Below, piece by piece: positions 357 through 5,954 of a stretch of DNA of 5,954 nt (position 1 is its first letter; every line of letters begins with the position of its first letter). This DNA is from a virus. Lineage: Duplodnaviria > Heunggongvirae > Uroviricota > Caudoviricetes. Below the pieces are notes generated by a model. The model ran no database searches and had not been told where the DNA came from. It saw nothing but the letters and a program-made list of their open reading frames with translations. Both the position numbers and the translations under genes were made by a program. The stretch is from IMG/VR virus record IMGVR_UViG_2684622669_000017. One strand, given 5' to 3'.

Positions 357-560
357 TCCTCACCTCTACTCACTTTTATTCCTCACTTTTTGTTATTCCC
401 GTCCTGCTCCTCACCTGTTTTTTTTGCTTCTGTAATGCGTTGTTTTGCAATGTATTTTTTATTCCTCACTTTTTGACCTATATACAGGTGAGAAAGTGAG
501 GAATAGCGCTGATTTTTTGTTAAATTACCCGCTATCCTCACTTTTGCTCCTCACTTTTTA
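355..560. repeat. Iteron array with AT-rich core: putative origin of replication of the element
   Basis: Direct copies of (A)TTCCTCAC(T)TTTT(G) at 355-363, 369-377 (partial CTCACTTTT), 378-392, 409-414 (followed by T8 at 418-425), 461-475, 533-546 and 547-559. One inverted copy AAAGTGAGGAAT at 493-504. CACCTG (412-417) and CAGGTG (485-490) form an inverted pair flanking an AT-rich stretch 418-484. Lies immediately 3' of the helicase gene; the last iteron overlaps its stop codon. Confidence 0.7.
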
Positions 561-1973
561 CAGTGGGCGCACATAATCACCGTCAATAGCGATTACGCCG
601 TCGCTTTCCAGCTTGTACAGCCAGCGCCGGAAGTTTTTCATTTCATACCCCAGCTTTTTCATATCGTCGCGGAGAAGGGCGATAGTGCACGCCTCCCCGT
701 GTGCTGTTCGCGTTCTGATGCACTGCCATAGCGCGGCATGATTCTCCGTCTTGTTCCCGGCCTCCTCGATGCGCTCCAGTTCAACAGGTGGGCGCGGCTT
801 ATCCACAACCACCAGCGACGTGATTAACTCCCCGTCAGTGTCGGTAAAAAGCTCCACCACGCGTAAATCGTATGCAGCCTCTTTCAGTTCCTCCGCGTCC
901 TTCATTTTGGTGCAGGAGATAACCAGGGCTTCACTGTCTGCACCTTCACGGCGAATACGGTATTCAGCGTCCAGAGATGCACGAAATGCACTGGAACCAC
1001 GCGCCCCCTTTGTTTCATCCTTGCCGGAATGGTGAACCACCAGCACCGTGGCCCCTGTGCGTCGTTTCAGTTCGTCACATCCACGGATAAACGCCCCCAT
1101 ATCCCGCGCGTCATTTTCATCATTACCGCCAAAACACCGCGCCAGCGTATCCAGAATAATCATGCGTACCGGTTTACCCGTTTCCCTTTCAACCTGGCGG
1201 GAAGCGATGACCATTTCATCAACATCAAACTGGGCTGCCGGAAAAATCGGGCGGTTTACCAGGTACAGATTTTCCACCCGTTTATCATTAACGATTTCCC
1301 ATGCCTTGATACGGCGGGGGACACCAATGCCACCTTCACCGACGACATACATCACCGAACCATGCGCCACCCTGCGGCCTCCCCAGTGACGGCCAGTGGC
1401 AACATGACACGCCCAGGAACACGCGAGGAACGATTTATAGGAACCGCTCGCGCCGTATGTGCTGCACAATGAATTAGCCGGAATCACGCCCTTAACGACA
1501 TAATCAAGCTGTGTGTCGTACCCTGCAGATCCAATGCTCATTGGTAGCGTGGTTTTTCGCTGGCTGTATTGCTCGTCAGTAAGTATTTCCCCGCGCTCTG
1601 CCTGTTCGCGGATCCGTTGCAGGTAGTCGTGCCAGTTCTCCAGCTTCTGGCTGTGCATTCCATCAGGGTAATAATTCGCATCCCGTACACCTGCCGCCGC
1701 CAGCTTTTGCCCGATAGCATTAATATTTGACGGCTTGATGTGGCCTGCCTTGTACAGCCGGACACAATAGCGACCATCGTCGATGATTTTCAGGTCTGCC
1801 AGTTCGTCAAGCTGGCTGTCTCCAAGCCATACGGGTGGCACGTTGTCGCCAGCAAGTCGCCCGTCCTGTTCCTGCCATTGTTTCGCGTGCGCCCAGGCAT
1901 CACTACCCGCAAAAATAATGACTTCGGTCATTTTGTCGTGTGGCTGTTTTTTTAAGTTCGGTGCCAGTTTCAT
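558..1973 (-). CDS. RepA-like replicative helicase / replication initiator, AAA_25 (RecA-fold) ATPase family, with C-terminal putative winged-helix DNA-binding region
   Basis: 471-aa ORF, ATG at 1973..1971 with AGGGT SD-like 5 nt upstream, ATGA overlap with the upstream ORF stop. Motifs: P-loop-like VIPANSLCSTYGASGSYKSFLA (Walker A variant with Y in place of the second Gly, verified on the DNA as TAT), Walker B MIILDTL, and VLVVHHSGKD characteristic of RepA/AAA_25 helicases. Iterons lie immediately downstream. Confidence 0.8.
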   Translation of the reverse strand: MKLAPNLKKQPHDKMTEVIIFAGSDAWAHAKQWQEQDGRLAGDNVPPVWLGDSQLDELADLKIIDDGRYCVRLYKAGHIKPSNINAIGQKLAAAGVRDANYYPDGMHSQKLENWHDYLQRIREQAERGEILTDEQYSQRKTTLPMSIGSAGYDTQLDYVVKGVIPANSLCSTYGASGSYKSFLACSWACHVATGRHWGGRRVAHGSVMYVVGEGGIGVPRRIKAWEIVNDKRVENLYLVNRPIFPAAQFDVDEMVIASRQVERETGKPVRMIILDTLARCFGGNDENDARDMGAFIRGCDELKRRTGATVLVVHHSGKDETKGARGSSAFRASLDAEYRIRREGADSEALVISCTKMKDAEELKEAAYDLRVVELFTDTDGELITSLVVVDKPRPPVELERIEEAGNKTENHAALWQCIRTRTAHGEACTIALLRDDMKKLGYEMKNFRRWLYKLESDGVIAIDGDYVRPL

Positions 1974-2709: not shown

Positions 2710-2942
2710 AACCCCCCCCCATTTTCACAATCAGCAATCAGGATGGCTTTGGCCTCATTCAGTGCCATATCAGCGGTAAGCTGTGCGTAGGCCAGCGAAT
2801 GGGGGATTATTGCCCCTGTATACTCCGGCTCTCTGGTAATGTGTTTTTCTGCGGTTGCTGCCGTGCATGAAATATCAATCAGCGCGCGCATTAGCGTTCT
2901 GATAGCTTCGTCGGCTGCGTCCGGACGGGTGTTATTGCACAT
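2682..2942 (-). CDS. Hypothetical protein (86 aa); possibly the N-terminal part of a gene split by the G9 tract
   Basis: ORF track; ATG at 2942..2940 with GGAGG 6 nt upstream; start overlaps the stop of the Icd-like gene (ATGTGCAATAA). The final 9 codons after the G9 tract (LCVMIVLMP) look like out-of-frame read-through. Confidence 0.55.
   Translation of the reverse strand: MCNNTRPDAADEAIRTLMRALIDISCTAATAEKHITREPEYTGAIIPHSLAYAQLTADMALNEAKAILIADCENGGGLCVMIVLMP
2712..2720. repeat. C9 (plus) / G9 (mRNA) homopolymer at the junction of two overlapping ORFs; candidate frameshift, slippage or sequencing-error site
   Basis: accccccccc at 2711-2720; read directly from the sequence. One extra G would fuse ORF 2682..2942 to ORF 2476..2709 (...DCENGGG-VMRDDRFNALK...), giving about 151 aa. 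Confidence 0.9.
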
Positions 2943-3138
2943 GGTGCACCTCCTGACGAATACGGGCGGCGAATACCATCACGCAGCCAGCCGGTGATTG
3001 TTGACGGGCTTCCTGTTCGCTGGTGGCCACGATGTGAATCACGCGCGGTTGTGCCGTGCTCAGGGCGATAAAACGCCAGATGTATTTATTCAGGTTGTGC
3101 GAGTCCCGCCCTTGCGGGTGTGTGGTATGATTTCTCAT
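2932..3138 (-). CDS. Small protein (68 aa) resembling Icd-like (host cell-division inhibitor-like) proteins of P4-type elements; first gene of the leftward operon
   Basis: ATG at 3138..3136 with GAGGT 4 nt upstream. Translation MRNHTTHPQGRDSHNLNKYIWRFIALSTAQPRVIHIVATSEQEARQQSPAGCVMVFAARIRQEVHHVQ. The W-R-F-x-A...ATSEQEAR...FAAR pattern matches, from memory, the Icd-like small-protein family. It is the 3' end of a 356-aa ORF-track entry whose upstream part I consider non-coding. Confidence 0.55.
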   Translation of the reverse strand: MRNHTTHPQGRDSHNLNKYIWRFIALSTAQPRVIHIVATSEQEARQQSPAGCVMVFAARIRQEVHHVQ

Positions 3139-3209: not shown

Positions 3210-3230
3210 TGCATTTATGCGCCTTGATAA

Positions 3231-3271
3231 TTTTAAGGTGTGGCCCACTATATGTTTTAGGTGTGGTCCAC
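3231..3271. promoter_or_regulatory. Tandem operator-like repeats TTTTA(A)GGTGTGG(C/T)CCAC, each containing a GTGG-N-CCAC palindrome
   Basis: Repeat 1 at 3231-3248 (palindrome GTGGCCCAC 3240-3248), repeat 2 at 3255-3271 (GTGGTCCAC 3263-3271), period about 24 bp. They overlap the -10 and spacer of the predicted leftward promoter and lie upstream of the RHH gene. Confidence 0.55.
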
Positions 3272-3276
3272 GTCAA
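3247..3276 (-). promoter_or_regulatory. Predicted sigma70 promoter for the leftward Icd-like/helicase operon (TTGACG-N18-TATAGT)
   Basis: Minus-strand -35 TTGACG (3276..3271) and -10 TATAGT (3252..3247) with an 18-nt spacer; predicted TSS near 3240; both operator repeats overlap it. Confidence 0.5.
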
Positions 3277-3337
3277 GAGTTTTATTTGTGCTTTTTCTGT
3301 GTATACTGTCCCCCACCAATCCACCAGAGGAATAGAA

Positions 3338-3517
3338 ATGGCAACGGGTACAACAAACGCAAAATCACAAGCTCTAAAGGCTCGTGTACCACACGAAATA
3401 GTAAACGCCATGGAATCAGTGAAAGAATCAGGCGAAAGCACATCACAATTCATCATTACGTCAATGCAAGGCGAGATCAAACGCCGCCAGCGGCGCAAGG
3501 CCAAAGAGCAGGAGTAA
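3338..3517 (+). CDS. Ribbon-helix-helix (Arc/MetJ/CopG-like) DNA-binding protein, 59 aa; candidate repressor of the divergent promoter
   Basis: ATG at 3338 with GAGG 7 nt upstream. Translation MATGTTNAKSQALKARVPHEIVNAMESVKESGESTSQFIITSMQGEIKRRQRRKAKEQE. Beta-strand (LKARVP) - helix A (HEIVNAMESVKES) - G-x-S turn - helix B matches the RHH signature (compare Arc NLRWPREVLDLVRKVAEENGRSVNSEIYQRVME). Palindromic repeats lie upstream. Confidence 0.65.
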   Translation: MATGTTNAKSQALKARVPHEIVNAMESVKESGESTSQFIITSMQGEIKRRQRRKAKEQE

Positions 3518-3574
3518 CCATCACCAGCGCCGTGGTGTGAGTAACTACGGCGCATTGCTATGCAGGACAACACA

Positions 3575-3748
3575 ATGACCGATAAAGAATTGACCAAAAC
3601 ATTATCACCGGCACGGAAAAGACGGCGCAGAAAGATAGAACATGAATCAGAAAGATTCGCACCTTGTTCGTTTGCTCTTGAGAAATTCCTTAAAGAGCAC
3701 AGGAAAAAGCTCTCGTTGCAAACCTTGGAACGAACCAAATCTGACTGA
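3575..3748 (+). CDS. Small basic protein (57 aa; 62 aa if translation starts at the upstream ATG 3560), function unknown
   Basis: ATG at 3575 preceded by AGGA (3564-3567) with 7-nt spacing; the ORF-track start at 3560 lacks an SD. Translation MTDKELTKTLSPARKRRRRKIEHESERFAPCSFALEKFLKEHRKKLSLQTLERTKSD; same frame as the RHH gene but separated by two stop codons. Confidence 0.45.
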   Translation: MTDKELTKTLSPARKRRRRKIEHESERFAPCSFALEKFLKEHRKKLSLQTLERTKSD

Positions 3749-3827
3749 TCACATTGCCCACCAGCCGCAAATGTGGCATTGTTGGTGATGCTCATACGTT
3801 GGGGATAACGTGTAGCTTGTGTCGAGG

Positions 3828-3855
3828 GGCCACCGTAGCGGTTGGCCTTTGTTTT
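3828..3855 (+). terminator. Probable intrinsic terminator of the RHH/small-protein operon
   Basis: Hairpin GGCCACCG-tag-CGGTTGGCC (8 bp with one bulge) followed by TTTGTTTT (3848-3855). Confidence 0.45.
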
Positions 3856-3872
3856 GCCTGTTATCCGGCAAT

Positions 3873-3902
3873 TGTGGCGCTTCGCCACACGGTTGATATA
3901 AT
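3873..3902 (+). promoter_or_regulatory. Extended -10 promoter (TGaTATAAT at 3894-3902) overlapped by a perfect 7-bp-arm palindrome TGTGGCG-CTT-CGCCACA (3873-3889)
   Basis: Perfect TATAAT at 3897-3902 preceded by TG at 3894-3895; -35 is weak (TTGTGG 3872-3877, 19-nt spacer); the palindrome occupies the -35/spacer region like an operator. Confidence 0.4.
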
Positions 3903-3908
3903 TCCCCT

Positions 3909-3979
3909 GCACTGATCCATTTTTTTCGCAGCAGGTTAATTGTTCGCAAGGGCGCTCCGGTAACGGGGCGCTTTTTGTT
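3909..3979 (+). ncRNA. Candidate small RNA (about 70 nt) between its own promoter and an intrinsic terminator
   Basis: Predicted TSS about 7 nt after the TATAAT; transcript ends at the 3952-3979 terminator; no ORF with an RBS in between; contains a possible 5' hairpin CCTGC...GCAGG. Entirely inferential. Confidence 0.3.
3952..3979 (+). terminator. Intrinsic terminator (plus strand): GC-rich 8-bp stem with GUAA tetraloop and U-tract
   Basis: GCGCTCCG-gtaa-CGGGGCGC (one U.G pair) followed by TTTTTGTT (3972-3979). On the minus strand the hairpin is not followed by a T-run, so it is unidirectional. Confidence 0.55.
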
Positions 3980-4006
3980 ATGTTCATCGCGTTACGCCTC
4001 ACACCA

Positions 4007-4213
4007 TTACGCAGCCGTTCCGCGCGCTTCTTCCTCGCGCTCTTTCAGCCAGGCCAGCACTTCATCTTCATACCAGCCAACACGACGCAGACCGATTTTG
4101 AATCCTTTCGGGAATTTTCCGGCGTTGATCATGTCCTGTAGCGAACTGTCTGCCTTGATGCGCAGAATATTTTTTACTTCCTGACGGGTAAGTATTTTTC
4201 TGATTGTTTCCAC
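4007..4213 (-). CDS. alpA: AlpA-family phage regulatory protein (transcriptional activator / excisionase-like, winged HTH)
   Basis: 68-aa ORF starting at GTG 4213..4211 with GAGGT 8 nt upstream. Translation ...ILTRQEVKNILRIKADSSLQDMINAGKFPKGFKIGLRRVGWYEDEVLAWLKER aligns with E. coli AlpA motifs (FPK, VGW, E-x-E-[IV]-x-x-W-L). Confidence 0.8.
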   Translation of the reverse strand: METIRKILTRQEVKNILRIKADSSLQDMINAGKFPKGFKIGLRRVGWYEDEVLAWLKEREEEARGTAA

Positions 4214-4280
4214 TATGTTTTACCTCGTTAATCCGGCGTATTCCGGTGATAAATACGGTAAAACAGGGCAGGGCGGGAAA

Positions 4281-4318
4281 AACAGTACCCACCGTTTTAA
4301 AACGGTACCCACTGTTTT
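4281..4318. promoter_or_regulatory. Composite repeat upstream of alpA: two direct GTACCCAC copies 20 bp apart around a perfect palindrome CCGTTTTAAAACGG, with inverted outer flanks AAAAACAG / CTGTTTTT
   Basis: GTACCCAC at 4285-4292 and 4305-4312; palindrome at 4292-4305; lies between the int-operon terminator and the alpA RBS. Confidence 0.4.
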
Positions 4319-4348
4319 TTATCTCATTGATTACGCTTTTCTTTCTGC

Positions 4349-4712: not shown

Positions 4713-5954
4713 TTACACGGCACGGATACCCCTTTTACCACTGGCTATGGTCACTCCGGTAGCTGCGGCCTCTACAAATTCCCCCCACCAGCGCATAAGC
4801 ACCACGCGCTTTTCCAGGTAGTTACTTCGGTTATATGCTCGCCTTACCTCGTTCGTGTCCACGTGTGCGAGTGCGGCCTCGATTACGTCCGGCTCGAATC
4901 CTTCCTCGTTCGCTGCTGTACTGAATATGGCGCGTAATCCGTGAGACACCAGCACACCAGCGTAACCCATCCGGCGTAATGCAGCGTTAGCGGTCTGGCT
5001 GCTCATTGGTAGCATTGGATTTTTAAGGCTGGGAAAAACATGTTCCCTGTGTGCGCTGATTGGCTTCATGGTTTCCAGTACAGCCATAGCCTGACCGCAA
5101 AGGGGGATCACATGGTCACGGCGCATCTTCATGCGTCCGGCTGGAATCGTCCAGGTTTCGGCATCGAGATCTATTTCTTCCCAGCGTGCGGCGGCTGCTT
5201 CGGCTGGGCGTGCTACGGTCAACAGTTGCCACTCGATCAGCAATCTGGTTTGCCGTTCTATGCTGGCGACCGATAAATCGTGCATTAGCTGCGGTAGCTG
5301 TTCCGGTCGGATGGTTGGCATGTGCTTTTTGGTGGGTGAGGGAAATGCCTTGCGGACGTTAGCAGCGGTGTTGATGTCAATCAGCCCACTGTTGGCGGCA
5401 AAATCCATCACTTCATTGATGCGCTGCAAAACGCGTTTCAGAGTTTCCAGGTTGCCGCGTGCTTTAATGGGTGTGAGTATCTCAACAAAGCGGCGAGCGG
5501 TGAGGGTATCTATTGGCGTTTTTCCGATGTACGGGAATACGTATTTTTCCATGGATCGCCAGATATCCTTAATCGTGTTGTAAGCGAGATTCTGGCCTTT
5601 TTTCATCTCGTACCAGTCAGAGGCAACTTTTTCGAACGTGTTGCCCTTTTTCCGACTCTCTGCTTCACGTTTCCGGCGTTCGTGGTCCTGTGGGTCAACT
5701 CCCTTCGCTATGAGTGACCTGTATTCATTCCGTCGTTCTCTGGCATCGGACAGGGAAACATCATTCAGCGATCCGAGGCTGATGATAGTCCGTTTTTTAT
5801 CTGCCGGGCGGTAGTACGTAAAACGCCAGATTTTTGATCCGGAGGGTTTCACCAGAAGAAATAATCCTCCGCCATCCTGCAGGGTGTATTCCTTTTCCCC
5901 TGGTCGTGCGTTTTTGATCTCCGTAATAGTTAGTGGGGTGGTTTTTCGTGCCAT
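4713..5954 (-). CDS. int: Site-specific tyrosine recombinase/integrase, P4 family (N-terminal arm-binding DUF4102-type domain plus catalytic domain)
   Basis: 413-aa ORF; ATG is the last three nucleotides of the window (5954..5952); TAA at 4715..4713. N-terminus MARKTTPLTITEIKNARPGEKEYTLQDGGGLFLLVKPSGSKIWRFTYY is typical of P4-type integrases (compare E. coli IntA). Catalytic motifs are present: R in TVARPAE, HGLRAIF (H-x-x-R), and tyrosine in RRAYNRSNY. Confidence 0.92.
   Translation of the reverse strand: MARKTTPLTITEIKNARPGEKEYTLQDGGGLFLLVKPSGSKIWRFTYYRPADKKRTIISLGSLNDVSLSDARERRNEYRSLIAKGVDPQDHERRKREAESRKKGNTFEKVASDWYEMKKGQNLAYNTIKDIWRSMEKYVFPYIGKTPIDTLTARRFVEILTPIKARGNLETLKRVLQRINEVMDFAANSGLIDINTAANVRKAFPSPTKKHMPTIRPEQLPQLMHDLSVASIERQTRLLIEWQLLTVARPAEAAAARWEEIDLDAETWTIPAGRMKMRRDHVIPLCGQAMAVLETMKPISAHREHVFPSLKNPMLPMSSQTANAALRRMGYAGVLVSHGLRAIFSTAANEEGFEPDVIEAALAHVDTNEVRRAYNRSNYLEKRVVLMRWWGEFVEAAATGVTIASGKRGIRAV

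Follow-up and report, generated by a model that had tools for sequence, protein, structure and literature searches.

A candidate antisense small RNA gene in the regulatory zone of an Escherichia coli phage-inducible chromosomal island

The present analysis bears on how the phage-inducible chromosomal islands (PICIs) of Gram-negative bacteria are silenced. The stretch of DNA analysed here (IMG/VR record IMGVR_UViG_2684622669_000017, 5,954 nt, referred to as the window) is an Escherichia coli PICI of the EcCICFT073 type (int, alpA, Icd-like gene, DUF4222, RepA helicase and iterons). Between two plus-strand genes and alpA it carries a conserved block of 253 nt (3754-4006). The block sits between alpA and the replication operon, and its carriers include CFT073 and O104:H4. 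Within this block, at 3873-3979, an initial annotation made from the sequence had proposed a gene for a small RNA (sRNA) of ~70 nt with an extended −10 promoter, a palindromic operator and an intrinsic terminator. Is this interval a transcription unit of its own and, if so, on what would its RNA act? The comparative data are best read as a separate short plus-strand transcription unit between T1, the terminator of the plus-strand YlcI/YnfO operon, and alpA, and an independent plus-strand RNA of ~70 nt is probably made from it.

Promoter, core and terminators of the predicted RNA

About 200 related loci were gathered from complete E. coli genomes and from IMG/VR, the latter by way of AlpA, of a DNA pattern for the conserved core of the RNA and its terminator T2, and of the Icd-like protein; the sample anchored on the Icd-like protein is unbiased with respect to the RNA. 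An AlpA-anchored scan of one genome per species returned only unrelated distant AlpA homologues. In EcCICFT073, the prototype Gram-negative PICI, the block was found at 92% identity, including T1, the −10 element, the core and T2 (Table 1).

The perfect extended −10 element of the initial annotation, TGATATAAT, is present and is the sole TGNTATAAT in the window, where ~0.19 would be expected by chance. Since at least one TGNTATAAT arose in 35 of 200 shuffles, a single occurrence is not significant; the promoter-terminator pair rises above chance because it is conserved, not because it is present in one window. The −10 window had 0.22 minor alleles per site, compared with ~1.5 across the block, and was the eighth least variable of 244 nine-nt windows. 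When 28 sequences of 80-99% identity were aligned, the least variable 9-mers of the block fell in the −10 region (3892-3902) and in the core at 3933-3945, with the segments around T1 and the palindrome several-fold more variable than either. Over more than 100 related islands, too, no part of the block was conserved better than the −10 and the 13-nt core. On both strands of the fetched loci (2.49 Mb) we counted 88 perfect TGNTATAAT sequences, 70 of which are this −10 element, located 23-24 nt upstream of the core. A −10 was at the expected place in all of the icd-anchored loci with a strict core (39/39), and the extended −10 is kept despite rewritten flanks in the loci L045, L048 and L025.

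Transcription from this promoter would end at T2, which places the transcript end ~70 nt from the predicted start and gives the unit a terminator of its own, as in antisense sRNAs of the OOP/sar type. The fold predicted for 3909-3979 (−23.9 kcal/mol, z = −2.7) leaves the 5' part open, followed by a weak hairpin and the stem-loop of T2, and for the whole block folding gave z = −2.9 on the plus strand compared with z = −1.3 on the minus strand. A covariance model of the core plus T2 (model R1) matched 97 loci. Among 23 distinct T2 sequences 100% of cells were paired, compared with only 46-61% in slid controls, and double changes were seen at two pairs (C-G to G-C and G-C to C-G). The covariation score was 0.317, compared with 0.156 for shuffles, and 0 of 500 shuffles reached this value, in an alignment that, being fitted to the model, favours the modelled T2 structure. 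This alignment was used in place of RNAalifold on a MAFFT alignment of the three promoter classes described below, which did not recover T2 because the stem types differ by one loop base, shifting the 3' arm. Additional independent compensatory variants of T2 are GGTTCC/GGGACC and CTCAGG/CTGGG. Conservation of the −10 element and terminator in related islands and folding with covariance analysis were checks proposed with the initial annotation, and both came out in favour of the RNA.

Further details bear on which strand is under selection. Two G.U pairs in each T2 stem correspond to A.C mismatches on the minus strand, and because these pairs are valid on the plus strand only, the T2 structure appears to be selected in plus-strand RNA. 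T1 seems to show the same selection, with compensatory changes between islands (GGCCACC/GGTGGCC in some and GGCGACC/GGTCGCC in others) and the T run retained. The GNRA loop assigned to the terminator of the RNA holds for one T2 type, with GTAA, GCAA or GGAA; a second type has a 5-nt loop, ATATC or TTATC. The arrangement that had first suggested a separate transcript, two plus-strand terminators with a promoter between them, is as described. The T1 hairpin is predicted by RNAfold at −14.7 kcal/mol, and a simple scan misses T1 of the window and finds T1 of its homologues.

Three classes of promoter precede the core, which is kept in all of them. In class B (L033, and L043 from O104:H4), a diverged class which occurs in hundreds of genomes, T1 is followed by ~175 nt of unrelated sequence and then by TTCACT-17-TATAAT, a promoter with 10 of 12 consensus matches that ends 49 nt before T2, compared with 46 nt in the window. 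The third class (class C) has TTGCCC-17-TATCAT; in these islands the first six bases of the motif TTGCCCACCAGCCGCAAATGTGGCATTGTTGGTGATGC, which opens the conserved block, are a possible −35 element.

The classes matter for an alternative in which there is no separate gene, T2 being the final or back-up terminator that guards alpA and int against antisense transcription from the YlcI/YnfO operon, and the −10 being weak, occluded or conserved on other grounds, for instance as a DNA-binding site. Class C islands (L040 type), which have T2 as the sole terminator after the plus-strand operon, agree with such a role, as do islands that have T1 only and manage without the module, and the weakened, bulged T1 of the window makes some read-through to T2 likely. 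However, the −10 is among the most conserved elements of the block, and a perfect TGnTATAAT does not normally need a −35 element for activity. Class B, moreover, replaces the −10 by another good promoter and not by random sequence, and the boundaries of the module fit those of a promoter-to-terminator cassette. We consider it improbable that T2 is a back-up terminator without a gene. The separate plus-strand unit of the initial annotation, backed by the conservation of the −10, the compensatory changes in T2 and the class B promoter, is the reading we prefer, and the best explanation of the interval is a self-contained sRNA gene in the regulatory ('Bro/immunity') zone of the island.

The upstream palindrome, TGTGGCG-CTT-CGCCACA, is present as annotated. 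It does not overlap the −10 as had been proposed, ending 4 nt upstream of its TG, over the −35 position, and it is not unusual, being one of 11 inverted repeats of about this size in the window. It had also been taken for an operator co-regulated with the presumed ribbon-helix-helix (RHH) operators of the neighbouring operon, an idea that we rejected, as the palindrome does not co-vary with the YlcI/YnfO or alpA alleles. It is broken or replaced in several lineages: L025 has the alpA of the window, yet another palindrome (TGGTC-N5-GACCA); L013 and L029 have the same YlcI/YnfO allele and operators, with different palindromes; and the window and L013 have the same palindrome, with different YlcI/YnfO alleles and operators. 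The half-sites are spaced as GTGG-N7-CCAC in the palindrome compared with GTGG-N1-CCAC in the operators, and the GTGG/CCAC tetramers common to both are not evidence of a link, because they are too short and their spacing too different.

Across islands, the unit appears to behave as a discrete, usually intact and dispensable cassette with promoter and terminator at its ends. At least 472 of the 5426 complete E. coli genomes contain the module, which reaches six copies in a single genome; no RNA-gene annotation of it was found in the records inspected. Core and T2 are present in 52 of the 70 icd-anchored islands, and the remaining 18 end at T1. Homology with CFT073 stops exactly at the T2 U-tract.

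The reading frame opposite the predicted RNA

The initial annotation had seen no protein-coding potential between promoter and terminator. This is correct for the plus strand, where 3909-3979 has no ATG and only a 7-codon TTG frame without a Shine-Dalgarno (SD) sequence. It is not correct for the minus strand, on which the predicted RNA is the perfect complement of codons 3-26 of a 351-codon open reading frame (ORF). Judged by its position and its C-terminal domain, this ORF is the counterpart of eta of phage P4, and it is called eta-like here. Its ATG is located 19 nt past the alpA stop, with the SD 9 nt upstream, and the frame spans T2, the RNA promoter, T1, both plus-strand genes and the divergent promoter region to end at the stop of the Icd-like gene. 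The Icd-like domain is its C-terminus (NF033153 at residues 307-350, numbered from the GTG at 4002). Counted from the eta-like ATG, the predicted RNA has its 3' end at +9 to +12, leaving the SD uncovered. This overlap is the most informative clue to the function of the RNA.

The eta-like frame was free of stops in 27 of 31 alpA-anchored relatives, with 0 stops compared with 8-48 in each of the other minus frames over 570-2238 nt, and it remains open in those relatives though the intervening modules differ. In the icd-anchored sample a median of 879 nt upstream of icd was stop-free, and the frame is likewise open in more distant islands with other upstream genes (examples of stop-free stretches are 1438-3225 in L016, 1325-2893 in L043 and 1610-2800 in L044). 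The strong signal is the stop count over the whole region and not the synonymous-shuffle test in the plus-strand genes, in which the individual genes lent only weak support to the idea that antisense stops are avoided (P(0 stops) 0.09-1.0). The well-supported plus-strand genes all share one phase relative to the eta-like ORF, with third codon positions facing each other.

The amino-acid sequence of the frame appears free to change while the frame itself is kept open. The synonymous fraction in the eta-like frame was 0.21 over the block and 0.11 over 3900-3987; each of the other five frames had a higher value, whether over 3856-3987, over 3900-3987 or over the block as a whole. Core changes between promoter classes are non-synonymous in this frame. 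These values bear on a second alternative, that the block codes for the N-terminal portion of an actual Bro-network/Eta-like protein and that the hairpins and the −10 are incidental. Nearly all relatives have the minus frame open, as a protein would require, PGAP labels pieces of it 'Icd-like', and PMC10111431 treats such ORFs as Bro-network genes. The low synonymous fraction and the non-synonymous core changes argue otherwise, as do the compensatory changes in T1 and T2 and the G.U pairs, which point to selection on plus-strand RNA. The N-terminal peptide, moreover, has 45 relatives among 5.8 billion proteins, none with a Pfam domain and all those from named organisms in Escherichia, and a Pfam search with the ORFs of the window and of L043 gave no match, Phage_ASH (PF10554) included. 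On the synonymous fractions and the few peptide relatives we rejected a protein-coding block; that a real protein underlies it seems very improbable.

In PGAP/RefSeq records (L002, L012-L014), the eta-like ORF is split into 'Icd-like protein, incomplete' pseudogenes or given as single proteins of up to 595 aa. The odd Icd-like pseudogene annotation is an artefact of the overlapping minus-strand ORF.

A plus-strand terminator ending 9-23 nt past the eta-like ATG was found in three start contexts, those of the window, of the L043 type and of the T1-only type. In the last of these, it is the operon's own 3' end that takes this role. About a quarter of the icd-anchored islands (L185, L193, L197, L199, L214, L221 and others) are without the RNA cassette. 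In many of them no plus-strand terminator follows T1, and only 6-9 nt separate the T run of T1 from the eta-like ATG beyond it; the operon mRNA thus has a 3' end that is antisense to the ORF start. The genes between the alpA-type regulator and T2 also vary, with none in the window and antA/antB, BRO-N or Rha elsewhere (L011 3227-3472, L043 2886-3686, L044 2640-4624), and T2 always stands directly after the last gene. In L011 (CFT073), a BRO-N remnant at 3227-3472 is fused in frame to the eta-like ORF.

Table 1. Features of the window around the predicted RNA and their coordinates
Feature	Position	Strand	Description
Predicted non-coding RNA, ~68-71 nt	3909-3979	+	Start inferred 7-9 nt past the −10; 3' end in the T2 U-tract
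Perfect extended −10, TGATATAAT	3894-3902	+	Direct reading and scan
Conserved core, TCGCAGCAGGTTAATTGTTCGC	3926-3947	+	Variability within the block is lowest over the 13 nt at 3933-3945
T2, predicted terminator of the RNA	3948-3979	+	12-pair stem 3948-3975, GTAA loop 3960-3963, U-tract 3972-3979
T1, terminator of the YlcI/YnfO operon	3828-3862	+	Bulged hairpin 3828-3855 followed by TTTGTTTT
Palindrome TGTGGCG-CTT-CGCCACA	3873-3889		Covers the −35 position; weakly conserved
38-nt motif TTGCCCACCAGCC... (in full TTGCCCACCAGCCGCAAATGTGGCATTGTTGGTGATGC)	3754-3791	+	Opens the conserved block, 5 nt past the ORF2 stop
Eta-like ORF, 351 codons	2932-3987	-	ATG 3987-3985, SD GAGG 4000-3997, stop 2932-2934
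alpA (AlpA family activator)	4007-4213	-	Convergent with the predicted RNA; Pfam PF05930 4.5e-8; PGAP concurs
76-aa ORF	Between integrase and alpA	-	
Integrase	4713-5954	-	
YlcI/YnfO family gene	3338-3517	+	NCBIfam NF041551 5e-19; PHROG 949
ORF2, 57 aa	3575-3748	+	PHROG 21027
Internal promoter TTGACG-18-TATAGT	3276-3247	-	For the icd-like/replication operon
Two GGTGTGG(C/T)CCAC repeats (operators)	3237-3248, 3260-3271		Over the −35/−10 of the internal minus-strand promoter
Icd-like gene	2932-3138	-	NF033153; own SD, ATG at 3138
Several small ORFs and DUF4222 gene	Left of the Icd-like gene	-	
RepA-type helicase, then iteron-like repeats	558-1973	-	

A possible brake on alpA read-through

Given this overlap, the RNA may dampen read-through from alpA into the replication operon, in the manner of P4 CI and P1 c4 though without homology to either. 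The constitutive extended −10 would start a transcript near 3909, and T2 would end it near 3976-3979. While the alpA promoter fires weakly, the RNA would pair with the read-through transcript just past the eta-like start codon, and this pairing would hinder or slow early translation or trigger cleavage of the RNase III type. The long untranslated RNA would then be exposed to Rho-dependent termination, leaving the replication genes off, and the facing promoter would add transcriptional interference. Upon arrival of a helper phage, strong induction of alpA would outrun the RNA, the eta-like ORF would be translated and transcription would cross the repressor module into the replication operon, with ribosomes shielding transcripts from the alpA promoter against Rho across ~850 nt of otherwise untranslated antisense RNA. 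Such protection could also account for an ORF kept open without constraint on its sequence. That the RNA works in this way is doubtful, though the explanation taken as a whole, a self-contained sRNA gene that brakes alpA read-through, is in our view evenly balanced between right and wrong.

Several points weigh against it. The module is absent from about a quarter of related islands, and in L044 (strain PU-1, 2585-2615) the promoter and core are deleted between TCCGGCAA repeats. The −10 is spoiled in the L016/L181 type (TATAAC, TG lost). With the module missing, deleted or deprived of its −10 in some islands, the RNA must be dispensable. The promoter of the third class is less to be trusted, because its TATCAT belongs to a small palindrome and the sequence is also found ahead of T1 in some of the islands that have T1 only; it may be only part of a palindrome in the 3' untranslated region of the operon. 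In the CFT073 type, a BRO-N-like segment far upstream forms the start of the ORF, and the RNA would consequently pair in mid-ORF. Read-through of the alpA transcript and the involvement of Rho are assumptions, and the enrichment of the minus-strand RNA in C is no more than modest (GC skew +0.30 at 3780-3859). The PICI papers and the wider literature that we searched make no mention of such an RNA. Finally, a cis-antisense role alone leaves the conservation of the 13-nt core unexplained, which leaves room for an additional role in trans. As a separate observation on L044, the deletion lies between the direct repeats TCCGGCAA/TCCGGTAA (window 3864-3871 and 3956-3963) and leaves a hybrid hairpin.

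An RNA acting mainly in trans would be an Hfq- or ProQ-dependent sRNA with the core, AGGUUAAUUGUUC, as seed for mRNAs of the host or of helper phages, serving, for instance, interference with helpers or inter-island immunity. The least variable core, mostly single-stranded and just 5' of a U-tailed terminator, has the usual layout of trans-acting sRNAs, and it is shared by three promoter classes that differ in their 5' parts. Against this, no complementary site other than the core's own antisense was found, either in the window or across ~1.2 Mb from related islands, and the phage collection gave no match. Two matching records in the plasmid collection merely carry parts of the block and hold no separate target, and the duplex energy of the RNA against both strands of the window (−30.9) was no better than the mean for shuffled RNA (−32.4). 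A search for complementarity to the 3' region of alpA or to the leader of the leftward operon had been proposed with the initial annotation; the predicted RNA stops 28 nt short of alpA. That the RNA acts mainly in trans is, on this evidence, quite unlikely; a trans-acting role is compatible with the cis-antisense brake and may hold alongside it.

The order of promoter, ~70 nt and terminator also resembles lambda PR'/tR', which raises the idea of an antitermination unit of the Q or AlpA type, yielding a short terminated RNA by default until a factor such as AlpA permits read-through of T2. AlpA of Pseudomonas is a processive antiterminator. Here, however, read-through would yield only antisense RNA to alpA and int, with no plus-strand genes downstream, and the upstream palindrome does not co-vary with the alpA alleles, as seen in L025. 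We regard antitermination at T2 as highly implausible.

If the RNA of the cis-antisense model is real, it would give a directly testable handle on island induction, in that one −10 mutation should shift the threshold. An RNA immunity function would have been rebuilt on the strand opposite that used in P4, the odd 'Icd-like pseudogene' annotations at this locus would be accounted for, and the RNA would be relevant to engineered PICI 'drones', in which leaky induction is unwanted. A broader possibility, which we put forward as unlikely but worth stating, is that Gram-negative PICIs have their off switch in the combination of the RNA, the stop-free eta-like ORF and the embedded YlcI/YnfO module. 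A drifting frame would then be kept open solely for ribosomes to escort transcription from the alpA promoter, shielded from Rho, through the repressor operon into the replication genes, and the constitutive antisense RNA at the first codons of the ORF would set the threshold of the switch. Cross-immunity between islands sharing the core may follow, and a protein plus an antisense RNA would replace the P4 CI/P1 c4 type of immunity.

Island context and known systems

The window has the features of Gram-negative PICIs, with co-oriented int and alpA, a replication module and near-identical islands that many E. coli genomes carry next to yejM, at tRNA-Pro. The motif at 3754-3791 is 100% identical in hundreds of E. 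coli genomes with differing downstream blocks, and it is here that homology between islands with different plus-strand cargo begins. The plus-strand module (3338-3748) lies antisense within the eta-like ORF, and for each of its two genes the synonymous fraction peaks in the gene's own frame (0.41 and 0.47). With other YlcI/YnfO alleles (L029/L013, L048 and L025), the operator repeats are replaced by other palindromes (AGGTGTATTTCACCT, GGTGTTGAACACC and AGGTGGTCACCT); because the repeats over the operon promoter change with the allele, the comparison suggests that the YlcI/YnfO protein is the island repressor. A PDB sequence search with this protein gave no match, and the PICI papers searched do not mention the plus-strand YlcI/YnfO module.

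Other features of the island were noted in passing. Downstream of the RepA helicase gene, at 360-560, there are CCTCACTTTT repeat units and a long inverted repeat, which are probably the replication origin of the island. In the small-ORF region of the minus-strand operon, homopolymer runs of C7 (2370-2376) and C9 (2712-2720) on the plus strand are G runs on the coding strand; the second run is shorter in strain 135 (L016), where two ORFs are fused in one frame, a difference that may reflect either slippage or an error in sequencing. A minus-strand terminator (4379-4354) is followed, upstream of alpA, by an imperfect 22-nt palindrome (AAAAACAGTACCCACCGTTTTA / TAAAACGGTACCCACTGTTTTT, 4278-4319), which is likely to be a control site of the alpA promoter.

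No known RNA family accounted for the interval. Searches of all 4227 Rfam families at E <= 10 returned only spurious microRNA and snoRNA matches, the microRNA ones due to the repeats and inverted repeat at 360-560, and one terminator match (E = 7.6). The covariance models for C4 (RF01695), isrK (RF01394) and c4-a1b1 (RF03163) gave no match in the window at E <= 10; in P4, used as positive control, they scored 74.9, 60.8 and 44.1 bits, respectively. Esr41/EcOnc14 was rejected as the identity of the RNA, being located in SpLE1 near iha.

P4 nevertheless offers the closest logic that the initial annotation had invoked, and the analogy holds in logic and not in homology, as no C4/CI or isrK homologue is present in the window. 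The P4 eta gene (8812-8168), one of the eta/kil ORFs of the immunity region, overlaps the end of vis, encodes an Icd-like C-terminus (1.4e-20, NF033153 at 161-208) and a Phage_ASH domain (PF10554, 82 bits), and encloses, on the same strand, the seqA/isrK-like leader and the CI (C4) RNA. As PMC10111431 has it (citing Sabbattini 1995 and Forti 1999), translation of eta prevents termination, the late promoter then reading into the downstream replication genes, and CI RNA is the negative factor. In both elements the RNA or candidate RNA lies directly downstream of an AlpA homologue (Vis in P4), and the ORF after the gene for this homologue ends in an Icd-like domain. Unlike the P4 RNAs, which lie on the eta strand and are processed from a leader, the window RNA lies on the opposite strand with a predicted promoter and terminator of its own, and the window ORF lacks the Phage_ASH domain and overlaps a protein-coding module in antisense.

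In P1, the c4 small RNA reportedly blocks translation of the Icd frame, upon which Rho stops transcription ahead of the genes downstream. The immI system of P1/P7 resembles the window in that an Icd-like domain is the C-terminus of the ORF that the window RNA would target. It differs in that c4 is part of the same transcript, from whose upstream portion RNase P frees it, and pairs with the icd ribosome-binding site, and the Rfam model search detected no sequence or structure homology between the window RNA and c4 of P1/P7.

Two further phage RNAs share the promoter-to-terminator design. Lambda OOP, ~77 nt long, is transcribed from a constitutive promoter of its own up to an intrinsic terminator and acts in cis as an antisense RNA on a regulator mRNA, with which it is convergent. 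OOP, however, overlaps the coding 3' end of cII, leads to RNase III cleavage and has no sequence similarity to the window RNA, which stops those 28 nt short of alpA and overlaps the next ORF instead. P22 sar, a 68-69-nt antisense RNA from the Arc/Mnt region, is made from a promoter directed against a strong regulated one and reduces translation of the gene downstream; similar in length, in its facing promoter and in its small-repressor region, it covers the ant ribosome-binding site, whereas the window RNA covers no SD, and the two are not homologous. The layout of the window itself, int-alpA-...-replication, is that of EcCICFT073-type PICIs, for which the literature describes AlpA as the activator and the repressor as unknown (PMC6092414). 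The predicted RNA would thus be of a known kind, the promoter-to-terminator antisense RNA of phage immunity regions represented by OOP, sar, CI and c4, in a new arrangement, on the strand opposite an eta-like ORF in a PICI.

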